Shown: positions 262-22,824, counted from the first letter of the stretch. The stretch is DNA of 64,000 nucleotides from Acetobacterium paludosum (GCF_008086595.1 NZ_RXYA01000003.1:82129-146128); one strand, 5' to 3'. The notes: generated from the sequence alone by a model not told the origin. Program-made: numbers and translations.

Positions 262-310
262 CTGAAAAATAAAGAAGCTGTTGCAATTAAAAAATTGCAG
301 CAGCTTCTTT
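262..310 (-). terminator. Putative rho-independent terminator of the RiPP/export operon: imperfect 15-bp inverted repeat (aagaagctgttgcaa / ttgcagcagcttctt), T-run on the minus strand
   Basis: Inverted repeat read directly just 3' of the stop of the 313..2463 gene; on the minus strand it is followed by ctttattttt. Confidence 0.45.
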
Positions 311-312
311 TA

Positions 313-2463
313 TCAAAGCAATTGCCGTTTTGCGTATTTATAAAAATAGGACTTGTTTTTCATCAGTTCCTCGTAGGAGCCTTCTTCAACAATATTTCCT
401 TTTTCAAGAACCAAAATCCGGTCACAATCCAGAATCGTGCTGAGGCGGTGAGCAATGACAAGGCGGGTCGCATCCAGATTTTTCATACTTTCCGAAACAA
501 TCTTCTGGGATCGGTTATCCAGAGCGCTGGTAGCTTCATCAAAAAAGATGATGGCTGGAGTGGCCGCAATAGCTCTGGCAATTAAAAGTTTTTGCCGCTG
601 CCCCCCTGACAGGGTACCTGCGCCTTCGGCCACCATGGTTTTAAGACCCATGGGCATTTCCCTGATTTCCTCATCCATCCCCACCTTTTTAAGCAATTCC
701 CAGACATCGTCTTCAGTTAATTCCTTCTTTGAACCAGCAATGTTGGACAGAATATCCCCTGGAATCAGCTGGCTGTCCTGTAGCACGACCCCCATCTGTT
801 TTCTGATTTCCCGGATATCCACACTTTCCAAATCGTAACCCCCACAGTAAATATTGCCGTTTGTTGGTTTTTCAAAACCGAGAAGCAGCCGTAAAAGTGT
901 TGATTTACCACTCCCCGACGCCCCTATAACGGCTACATATTCACCATGCCGGACCGTAATGGAAACATTGTCCAGTATGGTCGGTCCGCCTTCATAATAG
1001 CAAAATCGCAAGTGCGTGATTTCGATATCTCCCAAGATTTTTCCCGGGGTGGTTTTAAACGAATCCACTTCCGGGACACCATCGATAATGGGCTTTGTAT
1101 TCTCATATTGCGGAATCACACTGTTTACGGCAATCAGGGCCTGAACAAGGCCTAATAGAGATGAAATAAAAACAACAAATGCCGAATTGATGGCGACAAA
1201 ATCCCCAGGTGAAATGCTGTTAATACTCACATAATAATAGATGACACACATGCACAAGGTCGGTAGCGCAATGGTTGACAAACGCAGCAGTGCCGTAAGT
1301 TTTCCTCTTTTATACTCAACTTCCCGCTGCGCCGCATAGTCATTGACCCATTTTAAATAGGCCCGACTTTCGGCACCGGCCACCCGCAGTCGGGAAACTG
1401 AGGTAATCAATTCCAAAACCATTCCTGAAATATCGTTAGTCATTTTAATCGACTTTCGCTGACATTTCATCTGCATTTTTCCAATAATCAACGTGAGGAA
1501 AACGCTGAGAGCAGTTAAACCCATTGCGATAAATCCAATCGTCGCATTAATCGAAAAAATATAAAATCCATTAACAATCGAAAATCCCGTTGTAATGATC
1601 ATCGTGATCACATTGACCGATAGTATCTTTTGAATGGTTGCAAATCCGGTTGCCCGAAGTGCCAGAGCTCCTGATGAATACTGCTTGAAAAAAGAAGCCG
1701 GCAGGGACAGCAGTTTATCAAGCAGAGAATTCTGCAGAATTGACAGCTTACCCTGAATTCTCAGAATACACAAACTTTGAACCATTGTAAACAAGCCCCG
1801 ACTGACTGCAACAGCGACCAGTATAAAACCCACGACCAAAATGGTAATGGACTGATTTTGGGGAATCCAGACGTTAAAGGCCTGTTGCATGGCGATTGAA
1901 GGCAGCAGAGATAAAAGCGCAGCCGCCACCGCTAAAACAATCATCCCGATAAAATCTCTTCTTTGAATCAGCTTCGCTCCCAATTTCACCATTTCCCTAA
2001 AGGATACGGGTTCTTTAGGCAGCGGCGGATAAAAAACATAAGCATCTGAAAGCTCCAAACTTCCATCAACCTCTTTCGCCTCACCCTCGTAAGTCTTGCA
2101 TTTATAACGGGTTGGCGAGGACGGTATCAGCGCTACTGCCACTCCTTCTTTGGTGAATGCCAAAATGGGTCCGTTGTCCTTTTTGTACCAGTCATCTTTC
2201 AGTTCCACTAGCCGATAGCGAAAACCAGATTCTTCGGCAATCAATTTGAACTGGTTCTCACCGCTGTACAGCTTTCTGAGCGGCGGAATCTTCACCGCGA
2301 TTCCCATGGCTTCAGCAACTTTAACAACAGCGGAAATCAGGGGATTGTCTTCCAGTGTGACAGATGGCGTTTTTTTCGGGGATAATACTTTGTCAAATGC
2401 TTTTTTGGCACTTTTTTCGTATTTTTCCTTTAACTGTCTCATTTCTTCTAATTTCTTTGCCAT
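313..2463 (-). CDS. Bacteriocin/RiPP export ABC transporter, permease + ATPase; the N-terminal ~160 aa form a peptidase-like domain with no obvious catalytic Cys (NHLP/Nif11-type second exporter subunit)
   Basis: 716 aa; 6 TM region then an NBD with Walker A GASGSGKST, ABC signature LSGGQRQ and Walker B IIFFDEATSALD; no stop-to-start gap with the upstream PCAT gene. Confidence 0.8.
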   Translation of the reverse strand: MAKKLEEMRQLKEKYEKSAKKAFDKVLSPKKTPSVTLEDNPLISAVVKVAEAMGIAVKIPPLRKLYSGENQFKLIAEESGFRYRLVELKDDWYKKDNGPILAFTKEGVAVALIPSSPTRYKCKTYEGEAKEVDGSLELSDAYVFYPPLPKEPVSFREMVKLGAKLIQRRDFIGMIVLAVAAALLSLLPSIAMQQAFNVWIPQNQSITILVVGFILVAVAVSRGLFTMVQSLCILRIQGKLSILQNSLLDKLLSLPASFFKQYSSGALALRATGFATIQKILSVNVITMIITTGFSIVNGFYIFSINATIGFIAMGLTALSVFLTLIIGKMQMKCQRKSIKMTNDISGMVLELITSVSRLRVAGAESRAYLKWVNDYAAQREVEYKRGKLTALLRLSTIALPTLCMCVIYYYVSINSISPGDFVAINSAFVVFISSLLGLVQALIAVNSVIPQYENTKPIIDGVPEVDSFKTTPGKILGDIEITHLRFCYYEGGPTILDNVSITVRHGEYVAVIGASGSGKSTLLRLLLGFEKPTNGNIYCGGYDLESVDIREIRKQMGVVLQDSQLIPGDILSNIAGSKKELTEDDVWELLKKVGMDEEIREMPMGLKTMVAEGAGTLSGGQRQKLLIARAIAATPAIIFFDEATSALDNRSQKIVSESMKNLDATRLVIAHRLSTILDCDRILVLEKGNIVEEGSYEELMKNKSYFYKYAKRQLL

Positions 2464-2466
2464 GGT

Positions 2467-4668
2467 CTATCCCTCGGTTCTAATGAGATTTGCATACTCA
2501 CCGCCCAGTGTCAGCAGTTCGTCATGGGTTCCTCTTTCCGCCACTTCTCCGCCGCTTAAAACAATGATTTCATCACAATCGCGAATCGTTGACAATCGAT
2601 GTGCCACCAGAATGGTGCTGATTCCTCTTTTATTAATATTCTCACTAACCTGGGCTTCCGTTGCTGTATCCAGGGCGCTGGTGGCTTCATCCATAATCAA
2701 TATCCGCGGATTTTTGCACAATGCCCGGGCAATCTCAAGCCGCTGCCGCTGCCCGCCGCTCAAGTTTTTCCCCCCTTCGCTTAAAACATATTCAAAGGCA
2801 TTGGGCAGTGCCAGAATATCTTCATAAATACAGGCATCTTTTGTGGCCTGTATCACATCCGCTACTGGAATGGTTTCATCCCACATGGTGATATTATCCA
2901 AAACCGTCGCCGAATACATCACGATTTCCTGATCTACGGAACTCATGGTGTTATATCTCAGCTCTGCGGGAATATCTTTTATGTTAATGCCATCAATGAG
3001 TATTTCCCCGCTCCACGGTTGATAGAGAGTAGTAATGGTTTTTGCAATCGTTGATTTTCCGCTGCCGGATGACCCCACTAAAGCAATAGAGCCCCCTGCT
3101 TTTAGTTTTAAATTTAGGTCTTTGATGATGGGTTTTGATAAACGGTTATAACCAAAAGTCATATTTATTAGCTCAATCTCCCCATCCAGCTGATCGCAGT
3201 CAAAGCCGTCCAGAGAAATCTTTTCCGTTTCCAGCGCAATATCTTCCGGATATTTTTCAACATCATCTAGCCGTTGAATGTCAGCGATCATCCCCTGTAA
3301 CGCGGCGCTGGTGCTGACCAGTTCACTCATCGGCTGAGTAAATCCTGCCATCAGGGTGTTAAATGCGACAAATGTACCGATGGTCATGGTTCCCATTAAA
3401 ACAAATTCACCCCCAAACATAAATATCAAAGCTGTCAGGATGCTTGTCAGCAGGGTTGGCAGTACCGAGATAATGGCTTCCATCCCCCCCATGCGCTGTT
3501 CCACCGCCAGGGTTTCGGCGCTGAGTCCGGCAATCCGCGTGAAGAAATTGTCTTCCTCGCCAATCGATTTAATCGTTTCAATTGATTTCAGATTCACCAT
3601 GATCCAGCCAATGGATTTTCCCTGATACTGGAGCAGTACCCGGTTGTTGTCCGCATTTTTTTTAGCCGTATACTGGAGCAGCACGATATTAACGGCAGTA
3701 ATGATGATACCGATTAAAGTTAACGGAACATTATATTGAAATAAAAGGATTAAATATAGCCCCGCGGTGACTAGATTAACCAGTATCCGTGCTAAATTGC
3801 TGGATAAAGCTGTTGCAATCGTATTGATGCTCTGCATTCGGCTGTTGATATCACCGGATTGCCGCTGGTTAAAAAACTCCACCGGAAGTCTCAGCACATG
3901 ACGCAGATAGTCTCCGGCACTGTTGATGGCGATATAGTTTTCCATTCGCGCCAAAGCATTTTCTTTTAACCAGTTGAGAATCGCCTGGAGGATCACCGTA
4001 TACAATAAAATACCAAGAAAAATCGAAATATCAAACTGCTCCGAGTTGCTTAAATAATAGTCCACAAATATTTTCGCATAATTTGCAATCACCAACCCCG
4101 GAATAACCAATAAAACCCCAATAATTAAAACATAGATCAATGGCGAAACACCGCTTTGCGAAAGCCTTTTAAACAGTGCTTTCGATACAACCGGTTTTTC
4201 TCCAGCCTTAGTGAATTCTTCGCCCGGACGTGATTCGATGACCACCCCCGTAAACATTTTTTCCAGTTCTTCCTGGGAAACCACCCGCTTTCCTGAGGCC
4301 GGGTCGCATAAATAGACCTTATCGTTTTTAAATCCTTCCAAAACAACAAAGTGGCTGTAGTCCCAGTGAATAATCAATGGCATTTCCATATCCTTTAATT
4401 TATCCACCGTACATACAAATCCCTGGGCCTCTAAGCCATAAAGCCGGGCCGTTCTGGCAATGTTTCCGGCTTTTACACCGTCTCTGGAAACACCACAATC
4501 AATACGCAGCGTTTCCAACGTTTCATATCTACCATAATAGGCTAAAATCATGGAAAGAGATGCCACCCCGCATTCGACAGCCTCCATTTGCAGTACTACC
4601 GGCACTTTCGCTACTTTAGGCAGTTTTTGTTTCTCATCCCGACTTTTCTTGTGTTCTTGATTCGTCAT
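2467..4668 (-). CDS. Peptidase-containing ABC transporter (PCAT; C39 peptidase + permease + ATPase), LagD/SunT/CvaB-like
   Basis: 733 aa; N-terminal C39 motif with catalytic Cys (QMEAVECGVASLSMIL) and the later His/Asp region (HWDYSHFVVL); TM domain; NBD with GSSGSGKST, LSGGQRQR, ILIMDEATSALD. Confidence 0.85.
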   Translation of the reverse strand: MTNQEHKKSRDEKQKLPKVAKVPVVLQMEAVECGVASLSMILAYYGRYETLETLRIDCGVSRDGVKAGNIARTARLYGLEAQGFVCTVDKLKDMEMPLIIHWDYSHFVVLEGFKNDKVYLCDPASGKRVVSQEELEKMFTGVVIESRPGEEFTKAGEKPVVSKALFKRLSQSGVSPLIYVLIIGVLLVIPGLVIANYAKIFVDYYLSNSEQFDISIFLGILLYTVILQAILNWLKENALARMENYIAINSAGDYLRHVLRLPVEFFNQRQSGDINSRMQSINTIATALSSNLARILVNLVTAGLYLILLFQYNVPLTLIGIIITAVNIVLLQYTAKKNADNNRVLLQYQGKSIGWIMVNLKSIETIKSIGEEDNFFTRIAGLSAETLAVEQRMGGMEAIISVLPTLLTSILTALIFMFGGEFVLMGTMTIGTFVAFNTLMAGFTQPMSELVSTSAALQGMIADIQRLDDVEKYPEDIALETEKISLDGFDCDQLDGEIELINMTFGYNRLSKPIIKDLNLKLKAGGSIALVGSSGSGKSTIAKTITTLYQPWSGEILIDGINIKDIPAELRYNTMSSVDQEIVMYSATVLDNITMWDETIPVADVIQATKDACIYEDILALPNAFEYVLSEGGKNLSGGQRQRLEIARALCKNPRILIMDEATSALDTATEAQVSENINKRGISTILVAHRLSTIRDCDEIIVLSGGEVAERGTHDELLTLGGEYANLIRTEG

Positions 4669-4685
4669 GAGTCCTTTCCGCCTTT

Positions 4686-5510
4686 CTAGGAGATAATCAA
4701 ATTAATCAGATAATATTTATCTGTGAAAATGGTGGTTTGACAGGATGTTCCTATTTTTATTTGTCCATTAAAACCATTGTTGTCTTTTGTCCATATATAA
4801 GTTCCTTTATCATCAACCTTCGGATCGATAATAATTTTCATTTGAAGAGGATTCTGAACATCTTCAGTCACCTTGTTAATTTGAACATTTCGAACAACCC
4901 CTTTTAAATATCCATATTCGGCAGTAGGCGCTGTTTCAAGTGCGATATAAACCGCATCTCCCGACTGAATGGTCTGAGCCGCTTCATAAGTGGAATAGGC
5001 AATAATGACCGATGGGGTGTTTTCACCTTCTGTTTTTTCAATCTGGCAGAAAGCCGCGTTTTTTTGCAGCGTTTCGCCTTCCTGATAGTTAAGTTCTTCA
5101 ACAACGCCACTTTCCGTTGCATAAATCATGGTTTGACGTTTGACTTTGCTTTTTTCTTCGTCCGTCAACCCAATCCCTGTGGAAAATTCAGATCCCAGAC
5201 TCTCCATTGTAACCACACCCAGCAAATCCCCTTTATTGACATAATCGCCTTCGGAAACAGTAATTTCTGTCAAAACGCCTTCATTTTGACCCACTACTTC
5301 AACCGCACCTTCTCCATAGGCTATTGTTGCAGCCATGGTTGTTGTGATTTTTATGGGTACGGTGACTGAAAAAATAACCACGCCGATTAAAAAAATCAGA
5401 ATTCCCAATAAAATGAGCAAATTTTTAGGACCGATAACCGTCATTAATGCCGCCTGCTCATTTTTCTTTGTGCTTTTATCTTCTTTTTTTTGAAAGATGG
5501 ATTTACTCAC
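4686..5510 (-). CDS. HlyD-family secretion (membrane-fusion-like) protein, short form
   Basis: 274 aa; single N-terminal TM helix, then a biotin-lipoyl-like beta hybrid segment (ITVSEGDYVNKGDLLGVV); lies between the PCAT and the rest of the operon and overlaps the upstream gene by 8 nt. Confidence 0.6.
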   Translation of the reverse strand: MSKSIFQKKEDKSTKKNEQAALMTVIGPKNLLILLGILIFLIGVVIFSVTVPIKITTTMAATIAYGEGAVEVVGQNEGVLTEITVSEGDYVNKGDLLGVVTMESLGSEFSTGIGLTDEEKSKVKRQTMIYATESGVVEELNYQEGETLQKNAAFCQIEKTEGENTPSVIIAYSTYEAAQTIQSGDAVYIALETAPTAEYGYLKGVVRNVQINKVTEDVQNPLQMKIIIDPKVDDKGTYIWTKDNNGFNGQIKIGTSCQTTIFTDKYYLINLIIS

Positions 5511-6645
5511 TGCTTTGTCCTCCCACAGTCGGCTTGTTGTTTTTCACCAATTGATTTCCGACATAGGTCTTTTGGAATACCGGAATACTACTGACAAGCC
5601 GTTTATCGAAGCTTACGGTACCATAAAGAGTATCAAAACTGTTATCTGCCAAAACTTTTTTTATCTCTTCCACATCAAGACTTTGGGCCTTATTGGCGAC
5701 ATCTGCCGCTAGATGCAAAGCAAAATAGGCCTGGGCTGCCGGTAAATCAGGGTCTGTCCCAAAAGCACTTTTGTAAGCCTTTATGAAATCAGCCTGAGGA
5801 CCTGCTTGAGCGTTATTGTCGAAATAACTGGTCACCTGAATCAGTTTTTTCATGTTTTGGGGAATCGTAACGGGTTGAATTTCAATATCATAACTGAGAT
5901 AAATCGGTCGGGTATTTCCGGTTTTATCCAAATCATCAAAAAGGGTTGTAATGTCATCCCCAACACAGGCAGACACAATGGCCTGTGCCCCGAGGCTATC
6001 CCATTTTTTTACATAATATCTGAAATAATCAAGATTTGGCAGATAGGAAACGGCATCCACAATTTCAATTCCTGCCGCCGTGGCATATTCTTCGAAACTC
6101 TGCATATAATCTTTTCCATAGGTATTGCCGGGACTATGAACAAACACTACCTTGCTGATCCCCTGGACCACCAAACTCTGAACCATCTCGTTGGCCATGG
6201 AATTTTCTGAAGGAGCACAAAGATAGGCCCCCTCATTTCCCGAAAGATTTATTTTCGAAGTGGCGATTATGGGTGAAAAAAGGATCTTATTATTCCGCTG
6301 ATAAATACTGGCCACTTTCAGCACATCATCAGTGCTTCGATGACCGATCACAATGGGAAAGTCATCATTTCCCGCCACCATTGTGGCCACTTCAACAGCC
6401 GTATTAGTGTTATCTCCGTCATTAACATAATTTACTTCAATATTTCTATTCAGGATACCTCCCTGTTCATTGATTTCAATGGCTGCCAGCTTCAGGCCGT
6501 TGGCAAATGTCGCCCCGTAATCTTCAGAAAATGGATAAATGGCATCCACTGACAGGGTCCCGGTGTCCGACGTTTTACCGGTACAGCCGCAGCAGATCAT
6601 CCCACATATTAGCATAGCTGATAGTATCATTAGATATTTTTTCAT
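5503..6645 (-). CDS. Lipoprotein, periplasmic-binding-protein type I fold (Leu/Ile/Val-binding / ANF-receptor-like substrate-binding protein)
   Basis: 380 aa; signal peptide with lipobox (LICGMICCGC); type I periplasmic binding protein fold along its length; embedded in the RiPP operon. Confidence 0.65.
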   Translation of the reverse strand: MKKYLMILSAMLICGMICCGCTGKTSDTGTLSVDAIYPFSEDYGATFANGLKLAAIEINEQGGILNRNIEVNYVNDGDNTNTAVEVATMVAGNDDFPIVIGHRSTDDVLKVASIYQRNNKILFSPIIATSKINLSGNEGAYLCAPSENSMANEMVQSLVVQGISKVVFVHSPGNTYGKDYMQSFEEYATAAGIEIVDAVSYLPNLDYFRYYVKKWDSLGAQAIVSACVGDDITTLFDDLDKTGNTRPIYLSYDIEIQPVTIPQNMKKLIQVTSYFDNNAQAGPQADFIKAYKSAFGTDPDLPAAQAYFALHLAADVANKAQSLDVEEIKKVLADNSFDTLYGTVSFDKRLVSSIPVFQKTYVGNQLVKNNKPTVGGQSSE

Positions 6646-6654
6646 AACGCTCTC

Positions 6655-8358
6655 CTAAATAAACTCAGAAAATAGAATCAGATAATGGTCACTCATTTTC
6701 GTCAACAACTTATTCATGTTCTCGGAAGACAGCTTCAGTTTGTCTGACAGCTCTTTTACTGAAAGTCTTCCCGCATACTTTAGCATGTCTAGCTCGATCT
6801 GATTCATAGCCTTTATATCCAGCATTGAAAAAGCGGGGATTTTTTGAATGATCCAGTTGTCTTTTTCTGCTTTACTTAATTCATACCATTCTTTTAAAAG
6901 GCCATCATATTCAATGAGTTTTGAATAGTAACGAAACATCACTATATTTTTAGCATAGATATATTTAAAGTATCCTCCTGCAATGCCATATTTCAGAGCC
7001 AGTTGAAAGTCCTGCTTGATTCGTTCTTTTGGAATAAGCCCTTTTTCAAACTGTTCCTTCATTCTTTGGGAAATTTTTGTAATAAAACGGGAACGACCCA
7101 TGCAGACTTCTGGCAACGAAAGTCCCCATGTATGATTTACCGGAAAATCCTCAAAGGATGTGATATAGTCACGGTCTTCCAGCACAATCTGAAAATCTTC
7201 GGGATGATTATAAATTTTGGTTCCCGGCAGCGGCATGATAAAGGTGGTGGATAAATCCAGGAGTCCCGGTGCCAAACTCAAAAGTTTCAAAACTGCTTTT
7301 GTTGTCTCTCTAAGGGTTTCTTCTGTCTCCAAAGCTCCGCCAATGATATAATTTCCGGTTAACTGGGGCAGTCCTTCTTCATAACAGATTTCCACCACTT
7401 TTTTGATATCCTCCGGTTTTGCTTGTTTGCCATAGGCCTTCAGCACTTCTTCCACTCCCGATTCCATGCCGATCTGCATGCGAACCATGCCTGAGTCGAT
7501 CATCTCCCGGATCAGTCCCGGATGCTTCACCAGAAATCCGGGATGCCCTTCGCAAAACCATACAAAATCATGTTTTTTTCGAAGCTCTCTTAATCCAGCC
7601 AGGAGTAACTTCAACCTATCCGGATCTGTCGTCAGAGTATCATCAGTAAAAAACAGATACCGTGGCCTGTGACTGTTTGACAAGCGTTGTTCGATTTCTT
7701 CTAACACATCCTCGACGGGACGCATTCTCAATTTTTTTGAATTGCCCCCTTCAAAACAGAAAGCGCAGCGGTAGGGACAGCCTCTGGCTGTAATCACCGA
7801 TAGCAGCGGCCTTTCCCGATAATCCAAGACATCCTCATGACAAGGCAATTGGTACGTTGAAAAATCATTTATCTGAACATAATCGGCATTTTCACCCGTT
7901 CTTATTTCTCCCGGAACCGCCGTTTCGCTACCTGTGATTTTTCCGGTTAGCCACTCGATCAGGGTTTCTTCGCCTTCTCCTTTTATGATGGCATCCGCCT
8001 GGTAAACATCCAAATCTGTTGCTGTCATATGGCGGGTATGAGGGCCTCCCAGAACAACATAAAAGTCATAGCGGCTCTTCAGGTATTTAATCATCGACGC
8101 CACCGCCGATTGATTGTCAAAATCACAGTAAAAACAGACTGCAAAGAGATTATCTTTCATTTTTTCAATGGTTTTCACCGTGTCGGTGGTAATCCCGGTA
8201 TAGGCGTTCGCATCAAAACCATGGGCATTCAGTTGGGCCGCCAGGGTTAAAATCCCCAGATTTTCAATCATTTCAAAGGTCCGACCTCTGACCATTCGCT
8301 GGGTATAGATGAGCAAAACTTTGGGTTTTTCTTTTATGGTTGCCGATATAAAATCCAC
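6655..8358 (-). CDS. Cobalamin (B12)-binding radical SAM enzyme (class B rSAM) with a C-terminal RRE-like extension
   Basis: 567 aa; N-terminal B12-binding Rossmann-like domain; rSAM motif GCPYRCAFCFEG (CxxxCxxC); C-terminal ~190-aa extension shared with the paralogs. Confidence 0.85.
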   Translation of the reverse strand: MDFISATIKEKPKVLLIYTQRMVRGRTFEMIENLGILTLAAQLNAHGFDANAYTGITTDTVKTIEKMKDNLFAVCFYCDFDNQSAVASMIKYLKSRYDFYVVLGGPHTRHMTATDLDVYQADAIIKGEGEETLIEWLTGKITGSETAVPGEIRTGENADYVQINDFSTYQLPCHEDVLDYRERPLLSVITARGCPYRCAFCFEGGNSKKLRMRPVEDVLEEIEQRLSNSHRPRYLFFTDDTLTTDPDRLKLLLAGLRELRKKHDFVWFCEGHPGFLVKHPGLIREMIDSGMVRMQIGMESGVEEVLKAYGKQAKPEDIKKVVEICYEEGLPQLTGNYIIGGALETEETLRETTKAVLKLLSLAPGLLDLSTTFIMPLPGTKIYNHPEDFQIVLEDRDYITSFEDFPVNHTWGLSLPEVCMGRSRFITKISQRMKEQFEKGLIPKERIKQDFQLALKYGIAGGYFKYIYAKNIVMFRYYSKLIEYDGLLKEWYELSKAEKDNWIIQKIPAFSMLDIKAMNQIELDMLKYAGRLSVKELSDKLKLSSENMNKLLTKMSDHYLILFSEFI

Positions 8359-10085
8359 TTATTTCCCTCCATTTTATTTAGGGATCGCTCTGCTTCCGCA
8401 TAGAAATTAAGATTCTGCTCCTGAGGATCGAGATTCTTTCTGCCCTGCTGAAGCACTTCTTTTTTTGAAAGCTTTCCGTTGCACAGCTTCAAGAGCGTAT
8501 AGTCTGTTTCATCCAAAGTCTTGTCAAAAATTTTTGGTTTTTCTCCGCTGACATCCGTGTACAGCCATAATTCAAAAGTTCGATGAATAATCGCCTCTTG
8601 TTCAGCTTTTCCCAATTGATCATTTAAAACATACTCATCCGAAGCGCGCATTTTCCAGTAGGCATCATCAATGGGAATATTTTTATAGACATAATCATTC
8701 CAGCGGGTAAAAACCCCGTATTCCCGACCCAATCGGTAGGAATCCAGAATCACTGCTTCCGGAATTTTTCCGTCAAAATAAATTTTGCGCATTTCATTCT
8801 GGAGGCGCTTATTAGCCTGCAACCGAATATTTGTCAGATCAGTAAAATCCAGCTCTGCTGTTCTGGAAAGCGGAATATCTTCGTTGCAGCAATCAATCAG
8901 ATCTTCATAAATTTCCATGCCAAATTTCTCCGGGTTAAGGGTAATCGGCGTTTTGGGATAGGGTAGAAATGAAAAATAAGCGGTTTCGAATTGCCCCGGG
9001 GCATCGTAGAGAAGTTCCATAATCAAGTCTTCAGATTCTTGAATGGTTTCCCGGGTTTCATGGGGACCGCCGATAATAATATTACCGGAAATGCCATGAA
9101 TACCCGATTCAACGCAATGATTAATCACATTCACTGCCATTTTTCGGGTGATTTTTTTGTTGTAACTTTTTAAGACCTGATCACTTCCGGATTCCAGACC
9201 AAAAAAGATCTTCTTTAGACCGGCATCCGCCAGATTCTTCGCCATATCGCGATGCTTGTCGATGGTTGAAATATGAGCGCTGGCAAACCACACAAAGTCA
9301 TAGTCTGCTCTGATTTTTTTTATTTCATCGCAAATCTGATTCACCCGTTTATTATCTAAGGTAAAGGTATCATCCAGAAAATTAATGTAGTTAATAGCCG
9401 GATTACGCTCAAAATTCCCCCGAATTTCCTTCATCAATGAAGGAACCGAGTGACGACGCACCCGCTTGGCATTGGCCCCTTCATAACAGAAGGTACACCC
9501 AAAGGGACAGCCCCGTCCGGTTAAGATGGGCAGCAGTCCGTAATATTTATAGTCGTTGGTCAGGGTGATATCCGGCCAGGGAATATCGTCCAGGTCTTCT
9601 GGCGGCTTTCTAGGCTCGGTTTCCACCAATTTTCCTTCTTCATCCCGAAAAATAATCCCCCGGATGTCTTTCAGCGCTCCTTTTTGCGCGATAAAAAAAT
9701 CCATTAATTCCAGAATGGTTTCTTCACCCTCGCCAATACAAGCGGCTTCGATGGATGCTTCTTTTAAAAATCCGGCATCCATCCCCGCCGTCTGAGGCCC
9801 TCCCGCCAATAAAGAAACTTCTGGAAAAAGCTTCTTCACTTCTTTAGCAAAAATTGTCACCCAGTGAATGTTGTTGAAGTCGCAGTAAAAGCCAATGATT
9901 TTGGGTTTGTCTTCTTTTTCCATCAATTCTTTGACGTAATTCATGGCTTCTTTGGCATAGCCCTGAAACATCTGGACCTCATAGCCTTTATTCGTTAATA
10001 ATTGGGTCAATATATTCATTCCCAGGTTGCTCCCGGGAATATAACCGCTGACATAGCGATGTGATTTGATCAATAATAGTTCCAT
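8334..10085 (-). CDS. Cobalamin (B12)-binding radical SAM enzyme (class B rSAM) with a C-terminal RRE-like extension
   Basis: 583 aa; rSAM motif GCPFGCTFCYEG; B12-binding N-terminal domain; overlaps the downstream gene by 25 nt (translational coupling). Confidence 0.85.
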   Translation of the reverse strand: MELLLIKSHRYVSGYIPGSNLGMNILTQLLTNKGYEVQMFQGYAKEAMNYVKELMEKEDKPKIIGFYCDFNNIHWVTIFAKEVKKLFPEVSLLAGGPQTAGMDAGFLKEASIEAACIGEGEETILELMDFFIAQKGALKDIRGIIFRDEEGKLVETEPRKPPEDLDDIPWPDITLTNDYKYYGLLPILTGRGCPFGCTFCYEGANAKRVRRHSVPSLMKEIRGNFERNPAINYINFLDDTFTLDNKRVNQICDEIKKIRADYDFVWFASAHISTIDKHRDMAKNLADAGLKKIFFGLESGSDQVLKSYNKKITRKMAVNVINHCVESGIHGISGNIIIGGPHETRETIQESEDLIMELLYDAPGQFETAYFSFLPYPKTPITLNPEKFGMEIYEDLIDCCNEDIPLSRTAELDFTDLTNIRLQANKRLQNEMRKIYFDGKIPEAVILDSYRLGREYGVFTRWNDYVYKNIPIDDAYWKMRASDEYVLNDQLGKAEQEAIIHRTFELWLYTDVSGEKPKIFDKTLDETDYTLLKLCNGKLSKKEVLQQGRKNLDPQEQNLNFYAEAERSLNKMEGNKWILYRQP

Positions 10086-10161
10086 CTTCCACCTATCCCC
10101 CTTGAACTGCCGACTGCAACTTTCTCAGTCAGTACTTCGAAGGGGAAAATCCCCTTCTTTT

Positions 10162-10437
10162 TTATGACATTCTTGTTGTTTGGGTTGCTGTAAATGCGTA
10201 ATCTACACCTACAATACTTAAACCGCCGGCAGCCTGATCCAATTGATCATCACTAATTGGTTGTTTTTCTTTTGCTTCTTTAAAAGCAGCCTTAAATTCG
10301 TCTGCTTTTACGGTGTAACCCAATTTTGCAACAATCGCATCAAATTCTGCTTCTGTTTTAGCATCATTAATTTGTTTTGCCAAGGCCTCATCTGTTAATA
10401 CTTTTGCGGCTAATGCTCTTGCACCATCAATACTCAT
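10162..10437 (-). CDS. RiPP precursor peptide with a Nif11-type leader and double-glycine cleavage motif; predicted core LSIVGVDYAFTATQTTRMS
   Basis: The ORF-track protein begins with a TTG-coded Met; the ATG at 10437 has a strong RBS (AAGGAGGAATAATATG). The 92-aa product has the Nif11-domain pattern (amphipathic helices; ...KQPISDDQLDQAAGG) ending in GG before a 19-aa Thr/Val-rich C-terminus. It sits between B12-rSAM genes, upstream of a C39-PCAT. Confidence 0.8.
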   Translation of the reverse strand: MSIDGARALAAKVLTDEALAKQINDAKTEAEFDAIVAKLGYTVKADEFKAAFKEAKEKQPISDDQLDQAAGGLSIVGVDYAFTATQTTRMS

Positions 10438-10465
10438 ATTATTCCTCCTTTCCAAAGTATTTTGG

Positions 10466-12193
10466 CTAAATCGTAAAATGAGTCAGCCAATATTTAAAAT
10501 TAAATTGATATAAAATATCAACAAATTTTCCATGAAATTCCATCTCATTTTTATAGGCGGTTCCAAACTTTGAATAAAGTTCGGTTTTAATGTCTCCCAG
10601 GCTTCTTTTTCCGGCACAGCGTAAAATCAGCTCATACTCCAAAGGCGAAAGAGCCATGCCATCTAATATGGGAAACCCCTGGGTGAATGTCATCGTGCGC
10701 CATAATTCAAAAGTTCTTTGGGGATAATCTCTGAAGAAATCCAGTGATTCTTCAAAAGCTTGTCCTTCATTTAAATAAAGCACATAGTAGTATTCATAGG
10801 TTCTTGGATTGGCGTAAATTTCCTCAAACCATCGGCTTCTGATTCCATAGGTCAGCGCGGCTTTAAACTGTTTCATCACTACTGCTTCTTCTAGCTCATG
10901 GTTTTTTATTTTTTTTTGCATACTTTGTCTGATGACCTTATTTAATTCCTGTCGGTCTTTCATCACCTGGTCCTGACTTCGCTCTCTCTGGGTCACAAAA
11001 GGGTAGTCATCACCGCAAAGGCAGCCCTCTTCATCATGTAGCTGTAAATTGAATTTTTCAGGATTTTCAAGTATCTGTGTTCCCGGATAGGCTCTTAAAA
11101 ATCCGGTGATGATGTCAATCACACCCGGGGCCTGATTCGTCAGCGTTTCGATAAGTTTTGCAGTGGATCCGACTTTCTCTTCAGGTCCTCCCACAATAAA
11201 GTTGGTGGCAATCTGGGTGAGACCAGTATCTGCAGCATAAGTAACAAATTCAATGATGTCCGAAACCTTTACATGCTTATTATATTGATCAATGACCCTC
11301 TGATCCCCGGACTCAATCCCAATTTGAAGACGGATGAGTCCAGCCTCGATCATGGTTGGGAGGATATCCATCCAATCTTTTATTCGACCCACATGGCATT
11401 CACAATACCAGACAACATCACGTTTTTTTCTGATTTCCTTCATGCCTTCGCAGAATTCTTCAATTCGCTGTCGGTTAATGGTAAAGGTATCATCCATGAT
11501 AATAATATAGTTTAAATCGGGATTGTTTTTTAAATTAAGTCGGATTTCTTCCAGCACCAACGGCATGCTTCTGAGCCGAACTTTCTGTTTTCCGGGACTG
11601 GGAGCACAGTAGGCGCATTGATAGGGACAGCCTCGGCCGGTAAAAATCAACTTGCCGTAGGCATGATTTTTATGGAGGGAACAATGATAGGCCGGTAACG
11701 GCAGACTATCCAGATCTTCAATGATTTCAGGCGGCTCTGTTTCAACAAAAATGTCATCTTTGATCGTGGCCAATCCTTTGATACTGCTTAAATCACCCTG
11801 GAGCTTTAAAATAGCATCTAAAAGTTTAGGCAACGATACTTCAACTTCACCTCTTAAAATATAGTCCACGTTACTTTTTTCCAAAAAATCTTTTTTTAGC
11901 CCAATACTTTGGGGACCTCCAACAATGATGGGAATGTTCCACTTATCTTTTATCTTTTTTGCCAGTTCGGCAATCAATTGAACATTGTCAAAGTCACAGG
12001 AAAAGCCCACTGTATCTGGCTCGTTTTTTTCCATCTCATCCATTAGTTTTTCAGGGTCACCATGAAAAACCAGTGGTTCAAATCCTTCTCTTTCCAGAAC
12101 CCCGGCCAAATAAAACAACCCAACATAATCATGAGCGTTTGTTTCGTATTTTTTTGATACATTACAAAGGAGTATCTTCATTTTCTTACCCAT
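10466..12193 (-). CDS. Cobalamin (B12)-binding radical SAM enzyme (class B rSAM) with a C-terminal RRE-like extension
   Basis: 575 aa; rSAM motif GCPYQCAYCAP; B12-binding N-terminal domain; C-terminal motif LSPLEYELILRCAGKRSLGDI. Confidence 0.85.
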   Translation of the reverse strand: MGKKMKILLCNVSKKYETNAHDYVGLFYLAGVLEREGFEPLVFHGDPEKLMDEMEKNEPDTVGFSCDFDNVQLIAELAKKIKDKWNIPIIVGGPQSIGLKKDFLEKSNVDYILRGEVEVSLPKLLDAILKLQGDLSSIKGLATIKDDIFVETEPPEIIEDLDSLPLPAYHCSLHKNHAYGKLIFTGRGCPYQCAYCAPSPGKQKVRLRSMPLVLEEIRLNLKNNPDLNYIIIMDDTFTINRQRIEEFCEGMKEIRKKRDVVWYCECHVGRIKDWMDILPTMIEAGLIRLQIGIESGDQRVIDQYNKHVKVSDIIEFVTYAADTGLTQIATNFIVGGPEEKVGSTAKLIETLTNQAPGVIDIITGFLRAYPGTQILENPEKFNLQLHDEEGCLCGDDYPFVTQRERSQDQVMKDRQELNKVIRQSMQKKIKNHELEEAVVMKQFKAALTYGIRSRWFEEIYANPRTYEYYYVLYLNEGQAFEESLDFFRDYPQRTFELWRTMTFTQGFPILDGMALSPLEYELILRCAGKRSLGDIKTELYSKFGTAYKNEMEFHGKFVDILYQFNFKYWLTHFTI

Positions 12194-12196
12194 TTT

Positions 12197-15100
12197 CTAA
12201 AACGGAACAACAAGAAGCCAATATTTTTTATCAAAAACTTTCAACGTTTCAATTAGTCGTTCCATAAATTCATCAAAATTTTCTCCAAATGGTTTTCCAA
12301 ATCGGTCATAGAATATTTCAGCAACGGTTTTAATGGTACTTTTGCCGGTACAGTATTTCATCACTTCATATTCAAACGGAGAGAGTGCTTCTCCCCACAA
12401 AACCGGGTAGCCCTCGGAAAAATCAACATCCCGCCACATTTCAATCATCCGTTGCGGCCGCCAATTGGGCAATTCCACCGGGTTCACATCGACAATCCGA
12501 CTGGCGGATTCTCTGGCTAACATGGTATAGTAGGCCGTCAGGGTTGGCTTATGATGCGAAATGATATTAATCCAGTATTTGGGGCCTCTGGCTCCCATGG
12601 CTTTTTTATAGCATCTTAAAATATCCTCATGCTTTAAGTCCCCGTCGTTAAGCATGACTTTTACTTCATCCACAAAACTTTGCAGATATTCCTGATACGC
12701 TCCCATAATTTCCCGGCGATCCATCGTTTCACTGTCCATAATCGGATAATCAGAAATACTGCCTAAACCCTGTTCATCATAGATGGTTAACCCATATTTT
12801 TCAGGATGCAGACCAATATCGGTCATGGGATAGGGCATCACAATACTGGGGGCAATTTCCATCATCCCCGGGCCCAGCCGCAGCAGCTTGGCACCAAAAG
12901 CCTTATTTTTCTCAATGTGTTCACGGTTTTCAAAAGGGCCGCCAACCAGCAGGGCTCCAAAAACCTGTTGAACCCCGGCATCATAGGCTGCTTTAACAAC
13001 CGTTTCGACCATTTCTGGAGATATATTTTTTCGGTATATCTTCAGCATGTCCTTATCCACTGACTCAATGCCGATTTGAAGACGGTTGAGACCAGCATCG
13101 ACCATGACTTCTAACACTTCCGGCCGTCTGCTTAAAGATACTACATCGGCTTCACAATAGAACTGAAAGGGTTTAATCGCTTGAAGGGCCTTTGCCTCCC
13201 GGCAGAAATCATCCAGCCATTTGGGATTGGTGACCAGCGTGTCATCACAAAAGTTAAAATAATTGAGTTCCGGGTATTTAAGCAGAAAATGACGCATTTC
13301 GGCAATGACGTTTGCCACGCTCCGCTGACGCATGGGCCGTTTCAAGGCTCCTTCATGGCAGAAAACGCAGTGGTACGGGCATCCCCGGCTGCTCATCAGA
13401 TAAAGACTGGAGTAATCGATGGGAGTCATGCTTTTATCATAGGCCGGAAATGGCAGATCATCGAGGTTCTCAATAACCGGGCCTTCCCCCCGGTCGATGC
13501 ATTCGTTTTTCTCATTGATATAGAAAATTCCAGGAATGTCATCCAGGTTTTTGTTTTCTTTCAAGGCATCCAGAACCCGGACCATCGCCAGTTCCCCCTC
13601 GCCCCGAACGATGGCGCATGCCTTTGACTGTCTGAGATAATCTTCATTCAGAGAAATAGCTTCAGGGCCGCCGACAAGCACGGGAATGTTAAAGGTTTCG
13701 GTAATGGTCGCACTTACCTTTTTAGCCACATGTTTGTTTTCAAAATCAACCGAAAAACCAATCCCACAGACTTCCTCCCGATTAAATTTTTTCAGAAAAT
13801 CGATGGTCTGATCCGGCCGGCATTCGCATACCGTGGCATCATACCCTTTTGAATCAAGATAGCTTGCCAATCCATAGATCCCCAGGAAAGCTCCATTTCT
13901 GCTGAAGCCGGCAATTTCCATCCCGATGGTTGATAATTTAAAAAGGATGACCTTGTTTTTCACTTTACTTTCCACTGTTTTCTCCTGTTTCACCCATTCT
14001 TTATCTTCGTCTTTGGCTTTTAGAGATCCTGATAACACACACATGCCCACGGATTCCAGTTTTTTGATGGTCTCCAGGAGATAGCATTTAAATTCATGAA
14101 GGTCTCCAAAATTCTGTTCATGTTTTTTAAAGAGTAGTTCTGCCATTTCATTAATGGTTAGCTTGCCTGAGGTATAGGTTAGCACCTCAAATTCAAACGG
14201 CGAATAGACAAATCCGTTTAAAATCGGAATTTCTTCCGCCAGCTCTGGTGTCAGGGAAAGCAGCGCGATCCGCTGGGGATGGGTCTCAAAAACTGTTTCC
14301 GTGTCATAGTCTTTAATGAGCTTATCGCCCCGAATCCGGGCCTTATACTGGGCATCGAAATAGGGATATCGGGAATAAACCAGTCCCTGCCACATCCCAC
14401 TGAGGCTGTATTTTTCACTGAGTGCATAGCTCTCCAGAATCACCTCATCCGGAATCTCACCATCCCTGAGCATTTTTTGCATGAGCTTAATATTCTCTTC
14501 AAAAAACTCATTTCTGGCGGCACAGATTTCCTCGATACTCAGGGTTTCGGTTTCAATCACCGGGAAATCACCCACTGATGTCAGCGCCGCCTCATCTTTC
14601 ACAAAAATCCCAAAAGCCTCAGGATTTTTAGACATGGCGGTTTCCGGGAAAGGCATATAAAAGGTGCTGACCACCTCCACCATCCCCCGACCGGCTCTGA
14701 TCATTTCATTGACTGTGTTGAATGTATAATCCAGGGTTTCCCGGGTCTCCAGAGCTCCTCCGATGATGATATTACCAACCAGCTGGGGCAGCCCCGCTTT
14801 CTTACAGATCTCAACGACTTCGAAAAGACCTTCCCGTTTGATCTTTTTGTTGTAAATATCGATGATATGCTGATTGCAGCTTTCAATACCGATTTGCATC
14901 CGGACCAGGCCGGCCTCGACCATCATTTTCACAATTTCCGGATATTTAATAACAATATTCACATGGGCATCGGCAAACCAGACAAAATCGTGTTCTTTTC
15001 GCAGCTCTTTGAGTTGTTCACAAAAATCTTTGACCCGTTCCTTATCCAGGGTGAAGGTATCATCTCCGAAAAAGATGTATTTCACATTGGGATTCTGGGC

Positions 15101-15787
15101 CAAACGACAGCGGATTTCTTTCATCACATTTTCCACACTGCGGCGCCTGACATTTTTACTGTTCGCACCCTCATAACAAAAAGAGCAGTGGAAAGGACAC
15201 CCTCGTCCTGACATGACTGCCATATGATTAATTCCCTGATGCTGGGAGGATTTAATTTTACCGGTAATAATCGGTAGTTCGTCTAAATTCTCGATAGCCG
15301 GATAAATACCATTGTCATAATAGGTTCCGTCTTTTCTGAATGAACACATTCCTGGAATCTTTTCCCAATTTTCTTCATCTTCGTTTTCAATGTTTCTGAT
15401 GATCTCGTAGAGAGAATACTCCCCTTCTCCTCTGGCAATGCCGTCTGCCCGACTGGTTCTTAAAAAGCCTTCACCTAAGCCAACTGTCTGGGGGCCGCCG
15501 ATAAAAACATAGGCGCCATATCGCTTTTTAATCTCCTGTGAAAAGCTTTCAATTGCCGACTGATTCTCATAATCGCAATACAAAGCCACTACTGTATTTA
15601 CATCACAACCATCAGTTTTGAGAAATTCCAGGCCTTTTAACAGTTCTCCAGAAAATACGGCAACTTCAATACCTTTGCTGGCCATCATTTCAGCTAATGA
15701 CATATGGCCAATGGGCTCAATTTGAGTGATTGAATGGGTTCGCGTTCCTCTATGAATAAGCATCAGCTTCAGATTAATCGTTTTCAA
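12197..15787 (-). CDS. Fused tandem double cobalamin-binding radical SAM enzyme (two complete B12-rSAM modules in one 1196-aa polypeptide)
   Basis: Two separate CxxxCxxC motifs (GCPFHCSFCYEG in the N-terminal half, GCPYHCVFCHEG in the C-terminal half), each preceded by a B12-binding-like domain and followed by an RRE-like segment (LSPFEFEVLTYTSGK... and LSPFEYEVMKYCTGK...). Confidence 0.85.
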   Translation of the reverse strand: MKTINLKLMLIHRGTRTHSITQIEPIGHMSLAEMMASKGIEVAVFSGELLKGLEFLKTDGCDVNTVVALYCDYENQSAIESFSQEIKKRYGAYVFIGGPQTVGLGEGFLRTSRADGIARGEGEYSLYEIIRNIENEDEENWEKIPGMCSFRKDGTYYDNGIYPAIENLDELPIITGKIKSSQHQGINHMAVMSGRGCPFHCSFCYEGANSKNVRRRSVENVMKEIRCRLAQNPNVKYIFFGDDTFTLDKERVKDFCEQLKELRKEHDFVWFADAHVNIVIKYPEIVKMMVEAGLVRMQIGIESCNQHIIDIYNKKIKREGLFEVVEICKKAGLPQLVGNIIIGGALETRETLDYTFNTVNEMIRAGRGMVEVVSTFYMPFPETAMSKNPEAFGIFVKDEAALTSVGDFPVIETETLSIEEICAARNEFFEENIKLMQKMLRDGEIPDEVILESYALSEKYSLSGMWQGLVYSRYPYFDAQYKARIRGDKLIKDYDTETVFETHPQRIALLSLTPELAEEIPILNGFVYSPFEFEVLTYTSGKLTINEMAELLFKKHEQNFGDLHEFKCYLLETIKKLESVGMCVLSGSLKAKDEDKEWVKQEKTVESKVKNKVILFKLSTIGMEIAGFSRNGAFLGIYGLASYLDSKGYDATVCECRPDQTIDFLKKFNREEVCGIGFSVDFENKHVAKKVSATITETFNIPVLVGGPEAISLNEDYLRQSKACAIVRGEGELAMVRVLDALKENKNLDDIPGIFYINEKNECIDRGEGPVIENLDDLPFPAYDKSMTPIDYSSLYLMSSRGCPYHCVFCHEGALKRPMRQRSVANVIAEMRHFLLKYPELNYFNFCDDTLVTNPKWLDDFCREAKALQAIKPFQFYCEADVVSLSRRPEVLEVMVDAGLNRLQIGIESVDKDMLKIYRKNISPEMVETVVKAAYDAGVQQVFGALLVGGPFENREHIEKNKAFGAKLLRLGPGMMEIAPSIVMPYPMTDIGLHPEKYGLTIYDEQGLGSISDYPIMDSETMDRREIMGAYQEYLQSFVDEVKVMLNDGDLKHEDILRCYKKAMGARGPKYWINIISHHKPTLTAYYTMLARESASRIVDVNPVELPNWRPQRMIEMWRDVDFSEGYPVLWGEALSPFEYEVMKYCTGKSTIKTVAEIFYDRFGKPFGENFDEFMERLIETLKVFDKKYWLLVVPF

Positions 15788-15934
15788 TATTTGCCTCCCA
15801 ATTGTATTTTTTGTTTTCAGTACTCCCTATATCGATATAATTTTTTTAAATTTTCATTTTAATATTTTTTTCATTTTATTCTATTTTGTTCACTTTGTCT
15901 ATCGTTTATTTGTTAACTTTTCATGCCTATCTTA

Positions 15935-15987
15935 ACAAAAAAAAGATAGCCAAAACTGCGCTTTTTACCTACCGCAGTTTTGGCTAT
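15935..15987 (-). terminator. Rho-independent terminator (perfect 15-bp stem atagccaaaactgcg / cgcagttttggctat, U-run on the minus strand) ending the antiporter transcript upstream of the RiPP operon
   Basis: Perfect inverted repeat with a 12-nt loop; on the minus strand it is followed by tcttttttttg; lies 40 nt after the stop of the 16025..17263 gene. Confidence 0.65.
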
Positions 15988-17404: not shown

Positions 17405-17938
17405 CTAAAAAAGGATCATGCCAAACCAGGTAACGACGTTATAACCATTGAAAAATGACAGGTTATGCTTTTCACATATGTCTGTCACACTGATTGTCTG
17501 GCTTTCAATACAGGGATACATTTTATCTAAATGCCGACAGGCTTGATCCGGGTATGCACATTTTTCACATAGAGCACACGATTCTGCCGTAAGAATAAGG
17601 ATATCGTCATTTTCACTAAAAACATTTTTCTTTATTTGGTTTACAATCTGAATATGTTCTCCTCTGGTTGAAAGCATTTCATCCATATTGAGAATGTCAC
17701 TGACTTCAGATATGGTGCTGAAAATAAAGGCGTGATCGTAACTTGTACACCGGCCTTTACATTCATCCAGGGTTCCAACCGCCGGAGGGCAGGACCACGA
17801 TTTGCCATATTGCGGACATTCATTTTTACAGATAGTTCTCACCGCCTGATGAAAATTGAGTTCAGCGGGATCAAAAAATGCATACTCAACTATCGGATAT
17901 TCCGTAATTTTCTTTTCAATTTCTTCTTTTGTAATCAT
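17405..17938 (-). CDS. Predicted metal-binding protein (DUF2284-like, Cys-rich)
   Basis: 177 aa; Cys clusters CKNECPQYGKSWSCPP, CKGRC and CALCEKC. Confidence 0.45.
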   Translation of the reverse strand: MITKEEIEKKITEYPIVEYAFFDPAELNFHQAVRTICKNECPQYGKSWSCPPAVGTLDECKGRCTSYDHAFIFSTISEVSDILNMDEMLSTRGEHIQIVNQIKKNVFSENDDILILTAESCALCEKCAYPDQACRHLDKMYPCIESQTISVTDICEKHNLSFFNGYNVVTWFGMILF

Positions 17939-19672: not shown

Positions 19673-20509
<837 letters not shown>

Positions 20510-20534
20510 TTCGAAAGGAAAAAGGTGTTAAAAA

Positions 20535-20852
20535 ATGAAAATGATACGAGCAATTATCCGACCGGAGGTCGCTGATACAATCGCGGATGGTCTTGCAGCA
20601 GCAGGTTTTATTTCATTGACCAAAAGCAGCGTTTTTGGTCGCGGTAAGCAAAAAGGCATAACCGTGGGAACCACCCACTATGACGAATTGCCAAAAACAT
20701 CAATCATGCTTGTTGTTGAAGATGAAAATGTAGATGAGGTCATAAAACTGATTAAATGCAAGGCTTACACCGGCAACTTTGGTGATGGAAAGATCTTTAT
20801 CACCCCCGTTGAAAGAGTCGTCGCGGTTCGTACCGGCGATACCGAGCTTTAG
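20535..20852 (+). CDS. nifI1: PII-family nitrogenase regulatory protein NifI1
   Basis: 105 aa GlnB-like protein (MIRAIIRPE..., T-loop GRGKQKG) directly downstream of anfH. Confidence 0.85.
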   Translation: MKMIRAIIRPEVADTIADGLAAAGFISLTKSSVFGRGKQKGITVGTTHYDELPKTSIMLVVEDENVDEVIKLIKCKAYTGNFGDGKIFITPVERVVAVRTGDTEL

Positions 20853-20857
20853 GTGAT

Positions 20858-21226: not shown

Positions 21227-21255
21227 AAACTAATCCATTATTAAGGAGGAATTAA

Positions 21256-22824
<1,569 letters not shown>

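Follow-up and report, generated by a model that had tools for sequence, protein, structure and literature searches.

What kind of peptide is made when a single short precursor is encoded together with five cobalamin-type radical enzymes, and what would each of those enzymes contribute? The question is raised by a locus of Acetobacterium paludosum contained in a stretch of 64,000 nucleotides (GCF_008086595.1, NZ_RXYA01000003.1:82129-146128; hereafter the window), in which an earlier note had proposed a novel cluster for a peptide made on the ribosome and modified after translation (RiPP) with a Nif11-type leader. All five of the component types described there, namely a Nif11-type precursor, radical S-adenosylmethionine (rSAM) proteins of the cobalamin (B12)-dependent type, a peptidase-containing ATP-binding cassette (ABC) transporter (PCAT), a second ABC subunit with an HlyD-like protein, and a lipoprotein, were found on the minus strand. 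Nine co-directional open reading frames form one operon (window ~264-15901, ~15.6 kb) with the transcription order fused rSAM, rSAM2, precursor, rSAM3, rSAM4, lipoprotein, HlyD-like protein, PCAT and second ABC subunit (ABC2). It is judged fairly probable that this operon makes and exports a ribosomal peptide in which a conserved decapeptide undergoes leader-guided, residue-specific radical modification, mainly C-methylation, followed by cleavage after a double glycine and export.

Radical SAM modules and their C-terminal domains

The first gene of the operon (12197-15787; this and all other genes of the operon are on the minus strand) encodes a protein of 1196 residues in which two modules are fused head to tail. 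M1a (13988-15787) begins at a TTG start at 15787 that is preceded by a GGGAGG ribosome-binding site, and consists of a divergent, B12-like Rossmann domain, an rSAM core with the motif CxxxCxxC and a C-terminal domain resembling a RiPP recognition element (RRE). M1b (12197-13987) has a B12-binding domain (PF02310, 49 bits, residues 635-738), an rSAM core and an RRE-like domain. A B12-binding domain, rSAM core and C-terminal RRE-like domain also make up rSAM2 (module M2, 575 residues, 10466-12193) and rSAM3 (M3, 583 residues, 8334-10085). In rSAM4 (M4, 567 residues, 6655-8358), the gene for which overlaps that of rSAM3 by 25 nt, a borderline B12-binding domain and an rSAM core are followed by a shorter winged-helix C-terminal domain. 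Against the PF02310 cutoff of 32.1 bits, M2 scored 47.3, M3 42.1 and M4 32.4 bits. The CxxxCxxC motif and a Radical_SAM Pfam match are present in all five modules, bringing the operon to four rSAM proteins, one of them a tandem fusion, as had been proposed. The modules align pairwise over their full length (~570-600 residues) at 25-35% identity (E 1e-49 to 1e-104), with M1a showing 32-35% full-length identity to M1b and M4. By these alignments the five modules are paralogues, their mutual similarity being far above the match of any of them to a curated family.

No rSAM module reached the cutoff of any curated rSAM family in NCBIfam, a collection in which no specific model for the enzymes of the cluster was found. 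The best matches, to HpnJ, ApyD, BchE, PhpK and TIGR03975, were far below the respective cutoffs and spanned only the shared B12-rSAM core. HpnJ gave at best ~120 bits per module (87-122 bits for the single-module proteins and 241.5 bits for the whole two-module fusion; cutoff 577.6), BchE at most 116 bits (cutoff 481) and HpnR at most 82 bits (cutoff 650). Membership of a primary-metabolism family of the BchE/HpnR kind was the outcome named beforehand as fatal to the RiPP proposal, and it did not occur: all scores, those for HpnJ included, lie below cutoff. An AF2 model of rSAM2 (predicted local distance difference test, pLDDT, 93) has class-B rSAMs as its nearest solved folds, and three of the four closest are the C-methyltransferases CysS, MgmA and TsrM.

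The last ~100 residues of all five modules align with one another. When this C-terminal domain was modelled from rSAM2, structure comparison showed it to be RRE-like, of the PqqD-like winged-helix type. Pfam searches with the isolated C-terminal domains at E-values up to 10 gave no PqqD or RRE match, the only signal being a weak MarR/winged helix-turn-helix match for M4, and a profile of the domain found nothing significant among PDB sequences. The RRE assignment is thus one made from predicted structure. The domain profile recovered only 75 representatives among 1.84 billion proteins, and nearly all of these are the C-termini of proteins of ~570-610 residues or of fusions of ~835-1246 residues, or fragments. 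The domain is therefore rare and specific to this enzyme family. Going by the model, each module would dock independently on the leader through its C-terminal domain.

The precursor, its family and the spread of the cluster

The precursor gene (10162-10437) has an AGGAGG ribosome-binding site before its ATG and encodes 91 residues rather than the 92 originally reported; an alternative upstream TTG start would give a precursor of 97. The peptide matches TIGR03798 at 43.3 bits (cutoff 32.3) over profile positions 1-68 of 68 and the Pfam Nif11 family (PF07862) at 41.7 bits (cutoff 23.8, E 1.4e-10). The TIGR03798 model stops exactly at Gly-Gly72, in the cleavage motif ...DQAAGG/LSIVG... (the slash marks the cut), which upholds the view of the earlier note that a Nif11-type leader ends in a double glycine. 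The leader comprises residues 1-72 (nt 10222-10437) and is followed by a core of 19 residues, LSIVGVDYAFTATQTTRMS (residues 73-91, nt 10165-10221).

A profile search defined the precursor family as ~105 clusters at 90% identity with E < 1e-12, beyond which scores fall sharply. The string [VIL]G[VIL]DY is present in 92 of these ~105 clusters, with close variants in several others, and ~95 distinct precursors retain GG/[LI][ST]x[VL]G[VIL]DYxF together with a strongly conserved leader. The consensus of the core reads GG/[LI][ST][ILMF][VL]G[VIL]DY[ATSVP][FYI][TVA]..., after which come 4-10 variable residues. Within the conserved decapeptide, here LSIVGVDYAF, G5, D7, Y8 and F10 are nearly invariant and positions 1, 3, 4 and 6 are hydrophobic throughout with residues that swap. 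A few members have Ile at position 10 (DYAI, DYVI), and VG or AG replaces GG in a few distant relatives. The T/Q-rich tail is the least conserved segment of the core. The argument for C-methylation originally drawn from the abundance of V, I, T and Q in the core is therefore weakened, conservation being concentrated in the decapeptide and the T/Q-rich tail being the variable part. The strong conservation of the leader fits a single leader having to satisfy five recognition domains. Close homologs of the precursor are named from Sporomusa malonica, Anoxynatronum sibiricum and Aminivibrio. One locus from an Acetobacterium-like metagenome-assembled genome (MAG; L003) has two tandem precursor genes (5991-6260 and 6406-6678), one with a canonical core and the other reading GG/TSMIGFDYPFVMTPIVP, in which only the S, G, D, Y and F are retained. 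This variant core was also seen in several metagenomic precursors (P0017, P0030, P0033 and P0036-P0038).

The block formed by the fusion, M2, the precursor, M3 and M4 was found at 73-90% protein identity in 16 species-level genomes, which include Acetobacterium spp., other Eubacteriaceae, Candidatus Formimonas warabiya, Thermoclostridium, a Lachnospiraceae MAG and two Synergistaceae MAGs, so that this level of identity extends across four families of Bacillota and Synergistaceae. In Synergistaceae the gene order is permuted (precursor, M3, M4, fusion, M2). Overall, rSAM genes adjoin a Nif11 precursor in 21 of 21 related loci, across phyla and in permuted gene orders. Distant loci at ~40% identity were found in Heliomicrobium undosum (L017), a Clostridia MAG, Candidatus Wallbacteria (L019/L020) and another MAG. 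In these (L017, L018, L019/L020 and L021), six or seven separate rSAM genes flank a Nif11 precursor in which the core motif is retained. Best-hit analysis assigned to each distant cluster one ortholog of each of M1a, M1b, M2, M3 and M4 and, beyond these, one or two further genes resembling M1a; the orthologs of M1a and M1b are neighbouring, separate genes. The five modules are thus old, distinct lineages that have been kept together, and this suggests that they carry out five non-redundant steps. When the extra modules of the distant clusters were set against differences in core sequence, no pattern was apparent by eye. The rSAM genes of the distant loci include members of 876-909 residues. 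Among those of L018 (15823-16938, minus strand) is a gene for a protein of 371 residues without a Pfam match and with 21-25% identity to the modules, perhaps a partner protein or a paralogue that has degenerated.

The cluster is probably accessory and horizontally transferred. Horizontal spread is suggested by the high identity across phyla, by flanks that vary and by the lack of the cluster in A. bacchi (PMC6925170). The flanks differ between A. bakii and A. paludosum/tundrae, and in two hosts unrelated to each other a transposase gene immediately follows the cluster (L012, 15488-17071, IS66; L017, 18977-20203, ISL3), which fits horizontal mobility. The comparison of GC content between operon and surroundings showed no difference. 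Thus, of the signs that might mark the cluster as an island, a question raised by the earlier note, the varying flanks, nearby transposases and absence from A. bacchi were found and a compositional shift was not. The cluster is present in A. woodii, as judged from an antiSMASH survey (PMC6925170) and from an A. woodii homolog of rSAM2. A protein of Acetobacterium paludosum is 100% identical to rSAM2, which assigns the window to that species or to a very near relative. References cited in PMC13331322 name Acetobacterium and Sporomusa as known corrinoid producers.

Export genes, operon limits and flanks

The PCAT (2467-4668), with its C39 domain, permease and ATPase, exceeds the cutoff of TIGR03796 (903 bits against 853.3) and matches Peptidase_C39 at 1.2e-34. 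Residues Q27, C33, H106 and D122 of the C39 domain are found in the expected sequence motifs, in agreement with the intact peptidase previously described, and the protein matches the solved PCAT1 (4ry2) along its full length. On this basis the PCAT is predicted to cut after Gly-Gly72 and to export the peptide. Its partner permease/ATPase, ABC2 (313-2463), passes TIGR03797 (749.7 bits against 709.4) and shows no C39 domain by Pfam, being without an active peptidase domain. The membrane-fusion adaptor (4686-5510) is a short HlyD-like protein of 274 residues with matches to Pfam Biotin_lipoyl_2, HlyD_D23 and HlyD_3. It scored only 56.5 bits against TIGR03794 (cutoff 156.2; a model of 421 positions), with its best matched stretch at positions 248-343, and is thus HlyD-like but outside that equivalog. 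The cassette therefore resembles the NHLP/Nif11 export set (TIGR03794/TIGR03796/TIGR03797) in having an ABC1 with C39 and an ABC2 above the equivalog cutoffs and in the GG motif of its substrate, but departs from it in the truncated adaptor (274 against 421 residues) far below cutoff, in the extra LivJ-type lipoprotein gene inserted and in being replaced by versions of 34-43% identity, or by none, in related clusters. The export arrangement proposed by the earlier note accordingly holds for the second ABC subunit and for an HlyD-like protein, and does not extend to membership of TIGR03794.

The embedded gene for a substrate-binding lipoprotein was likewise confirmed. It encodes a probable LivJ/Peripla_BP_6 protein (5503-6645, 380 residues, Peripla_BP_6 1.6e-43) with a signal and a lipobox-like sequence at its N-terminus. 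The closest solved relative is 4mlc, an 'extracellular ligand-binding receptor' (8e-28), followed by Leu/Ile/Val-binding proteins, and the operon encodes no cognate importer permease for it. Beyond the Acetobacterium/Eubacteriaceae loci neither the lipoprotein nor the short HlyD was found, the former being absent from the loci of Formimonas, Thermoclostridium and Synergistaceae, and both are thus outside the conserved core of the cluster. The lipoprotein is a lineage-specific accessory, possibly for self-protection, sensing or export. Formimonas and Synergistaceae have ABC pairs of 34-43% identity placed elsewhere. No transporter accompanies the Thermoclostridium locus, after which comes an IS66 transposase. 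In the distant loci, stand-alone Peptidase_C39_2 or C1 cysteine peptidases are found nearby in place of a PCAT.

A promoter-like site (TAGACA-17-TAAAAT, 15873-15901, minus strand), recognised from its match to the consensus and thus a putative promoter, lies upstream of the operon. Beyond it a terminator-like inverted repeat with a T-run (15936-15987) ends the preceding Na+/H+ exchanger gene, with the promoter-like site just downstream. At the other end, a terminator-like hairpin with a T-run (264-309, minus strand), recognised from the sequence, lies immediately 3' of ABC2, and the gene downstream of it is a convergent hemerythrin gene. These elements set the limits of the unit at ~264-15901, slightly wider than the 313-15787 of the earlier note, which are borne out as gene coordinates. 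Intergenic gaps are 3-76 nt and overlapping genes share 8-25 nt. Together, the promoter-like site, the tight gene spacing and the flanking terminators confirm one self-contained operon. An Rfam scan of the whole window at gathering thresholds gave zero matches, and therefore no cobalamin or other riboswitch upstream of the operon. Directly 3' of the precursor stop codon are two tandem stem-loops without a T-run (10104-10157, minus strand). Strong hairpins are predicted at this position in nearly all related loci (L001-L018), with weaker ones in L019-L021, and in the distant loci they have different sequences. The stem-loops are probably a transcript-stabilising or attenuating element that would set the ratio of precursor to enzymes.

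A nitrogenase-like set lies ~4 kb from the operon and contains NifH (Fer4_NifH, 1.7e-118) and two NifD/K-like proteins of the Oxidored_nitro family. It is adjoined by genes for a regulator with HTH_17 and PBP_like domains and for a DUF2284 metal-binding protein; together these genes occupy 19685-24593 on the plus strand and 18110-19081 and 17405-17938 on the minus strand. The name Nif11 derives from nif clusters, and the proximity of nitrogenase-like genes to this Nif11 operon is probably a coincidence. A local GC minimum of 0.30 at 26001-28000, against 0.35-0.46 in most other 2-kb bins, has the nif-like genes on one side and a PAS histidine kinase on the other.

Chemistry and role of the product

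In the pathway that we propose, the precursor would be translated as a 72-residue Nif11-type leader with a 19-residue core, and each module would dock on the shared leader by way of its RRE-type domain. The [4Fe-4S] cluster of the module would cleave S-adenosylmethionine to give the 5'-deoxyadenosyl radical, which would abstract hydrogen from one site among core residues 1-11, so that each module modifies its own site in the L-S-I-V-G-V-D-Y-A-F decapeptide. A methyl group would then move from methylcobalamin to an unactivated side-chain carbon, although one or more modules may form a C-C cross-link instead. After at least five modifications the PCAT would cut after Gly-Gly72 and, with ABC2 and the HlyD-like adaptor, export a small, very hydrophobic peptide. 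The LivJ-type lipoprotein would be a lineage-specific accessory, possibly in self-protection or sensing. There is precedent for such enzymes in the residue-specific B12-rSAM C-methyltransferases BotRMT1-3 of bottromycin and PoyB/C of polytheonamide (PMC11285071) and in ApyD, an RRE-fused B12-rSAM responsible for the beta-methylation of Tyr (PMC11002830). MpcBC of the clavusporins is a further precedent (PMC10849626). We would lean slightly towards methylation as the main chemistry.

None of the characterised systems that come closest accounts for the whole cluster. The proteusins (polytheonamide/aeronamide, with PoyB/PoyC) have in common with it a large NHLP/Nif11-type leader, cobalamin-type rSAMs acting on a ribosomal core and a Val/Ile-rich hydrophobic core (PMC11285071). 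In contrast, the modules described here lie below the TIGR03975 cutoff, the operon is without rSAM epimerase, N-methyltransferase, dehydratase or other enzyme genes, the core has 19 residues, ~10 of them conserved, against ~48, and two iterative enzymes have their counterpart in 5-7 specialised paralogues, each with its own RRE-like domain. The bottromycin pathway also uses several B12-rSAMs, each specific for a residue (Phe, Val, Pro) of a short core (PMC11285071), but compared by description rather than by sequence it is actinobacterial, has a follower peptide and not a Nif11 leader, has three methylases against the five found here and needs YcaO, amidohydrolases and a P450. The ApyD family (NF050148) ranked first for rSAM2 and within the first three matches for both the fusion and rSAM3; however, only the common B12-rSAM core aligns (profile positions ~67-390 of 645), and the MNIO, P450 and methyltransferase enzymes of the aminopyruvatide pathway are absent. 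The clavusporins, made by MpcB with the DUF5825 protein MpcC, are hydrophobic RiPPs with at most 8 leader-dependent C-methylations at unactivated carbons (PMC10849626). Theirs is an actinobacterial system with one iterative enzyme (motif Cx7Cx2C) and its DUF5825 partner, an S9 peptidase and an MFS exporter, whereas the present cluster has a PCAT as its exporter and five paralogues that combine a CxxxCxxC motif with a fused RRE-like domain. The opinion that the locus matches no characterised RiPP cluster agrees with these comparisons: the proteins fall outside TIGR03975 and the ApyD family, and no characterised product was found. A 2019 antiSMASH survey of Acetobacterium genomes listed the cluster as 'bacteriocin' (PMC6925170), and beyond this mention no literature on the product or on the exact core string was found, subscription-only papers being outside the scope of the search.

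Several observations weigh against a pathway of five B12-dependent steps dominated by methylation. The N-terminal domain of M1a (fusion residues 1-172) scored 18 bits against PF02310, below the cutoff of 32.1. M1a does keep the GGP and GEGE motifs and align over its full length with the other modules, and the five B12 modules of the earlier note are thus supported by homology and not uniformly by hidden Markov model scores, which pass in four, in rSAM4 barely. Several orthologs in distant clusters are also without a recorded B12-binding match. No methyltransferase family cutoff was reached, TIGR03975 giving 39-130 bits across all the proteins (cutoff 281.85) and the ApyD family 50-198 bits (cutoff 750), and the second-closest fold to the rSAM2 model is that of AprD4, a diol dehydratase and not a methylase. 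The most invariant residues of the core, G5, D7, Y8 and F10, are not classic targets of aliphatic methylation, and the aliphatic positions tolerate L/T, I/M/F and V/I/F swaps. Finally, several related loci have no adjacent transporter, and so secretion is not established family-wide.

The last of these points bears on the role of the product, which may serve corrinoid-rich anaerobes in a physiological way, whether as surfactant or morphogen, as signal or as cell-associated factor, rather than as an antimicrobial bacteriocin, with the lipoprotein as its receptor. We regard this as possible rather than probable. The extreme conservation of leader and core across phyla would be unusual for bacteriocins, which tend to diversify, and the clavusporins provide an example of how hydrophobic RiPPs with many methyl groups can serve as surfactants and morphogens (PMC10849626). 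The orphan LivJ-type binding lipoprotein within the operon and the family members without an adjacent exporter are in keeping with such a role. However, the export cassette is the one defined for NHLP/Nif11 bacteriocin systems, and the operon encodes neither a regulator nor a sensor kinase.

The invariant residues of the core can also be read as belonging to the same RiPP cluster with a different main chemistry, in which some or all of the modules form C-C cross-links or rings, such as a cyclophane or aryl link across Tyr8-x-Phe10 or a cyclopropane on Val or Ile, and the product would be a small macrocycle of constrained shape. The near-invariant G5, D7, Y8 and F10 place Tyr and Phe in a Y-x-F arrangement, and the B12-rSAM PbsB, which shows that such enzymes of RiPP pathways also form aryl cross-links, joins aromatic residues in an aromatic-x-aromatic motif (PMC12257519). 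Ring contraction, ring formation and thioether formation are likewise known for B12-rSAMs (PMC13331322), and the present modules are outside every curated methyltransferase family. Against this, the occurrence of Ile at position 10 in a few members argues against an obligatory biaryl link, and the authors of the PbsB work suggest that coupling needs a phenolic ring on both partners (PMC12257519). C-methylation is the reaction of most B12-rSAMs so far characterised from RiPP pathways (PMC11285071), and three of the four folds closest to rSAM2 are those of methyltransferases. Cross-linking or ring formation as the main chemistry is considered unlikely, if well short of negligible. That the rSAM genes instead encode HpnJ-, BchE- or HpnR-like enzymes of primary or cofactor metabolism and adjoin a Nif11 gene by chance retains practically no probability, for although HpnJ, BchE and HpnR are among the top NCBIfam matches by E-value and nitrogenase-like genes are nearby, those matches are far below cutoff and confined to the common core, the modules carry RRE-like domains and the pairing with a Nif11 precursor recurs in all 21 loci, so that such an identity is effectively refuted by cutoffs, synteny and the RRE-like domains.

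The preferred reading thus remains that of a leader-guided, mainly C-methylating pathway. Its parts are of known kinds: a Nif11-leader RiPP, class-B-type rSAM maturases, RRE-guided recognition and an NHLP-type export cassette. What is new is the number of paralogous radical enzymes, 5-7 for ~10 conserved residues, together with a family-specific fused recognition domain, a deeply conserved core motif and a phyletic pattern in anaerobes. More tentatively, and as an extension that we hold to be rather doubtful, the cluster may represent a new RiPP class in which an ancient set of 5-7 RRE-fused cobalamin-type rSAM paralogues acts sequentially on an invariant x-S-x-V-G-x-D-Y-x-F, with about one enzyme per two residues. 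At least one of these would catalyse a reaction new for B12-rSAMs on peptides, such as cyclopropanation, formation of an aryl-alkyl cross-link or a change at or near the invariant Gly, Asp or Tyr, and the product would occur mainly in corrinoid-rich anaerobes, in a conserved physiological and not a bacteriocin role.

Among the C-H functionalisations known, some of the most demanding are the work of cobalamin-dependent rSAMs, of which only a few peptide-modifying examples have been characterised. The 5-7 anciently diverged paralogues described here apparently recognise the same leader through their own fused domains and would act on the same 10-residue motif. They offer a natural comparison for site selectivity and reaction outcome in class-B rSAMs and a compact toolbox for peptide engineering. 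As the cluster is small (~15.6 kb) and present in A. woodii, it is directly testable. It is conserved in Bacillota, Synergistota, Wallbacteria and further phyla, with Acetobacterium woodii, an acetogen in industrial use, among its hosts, and conservation of this kind hints at more than strain-level antagonism.

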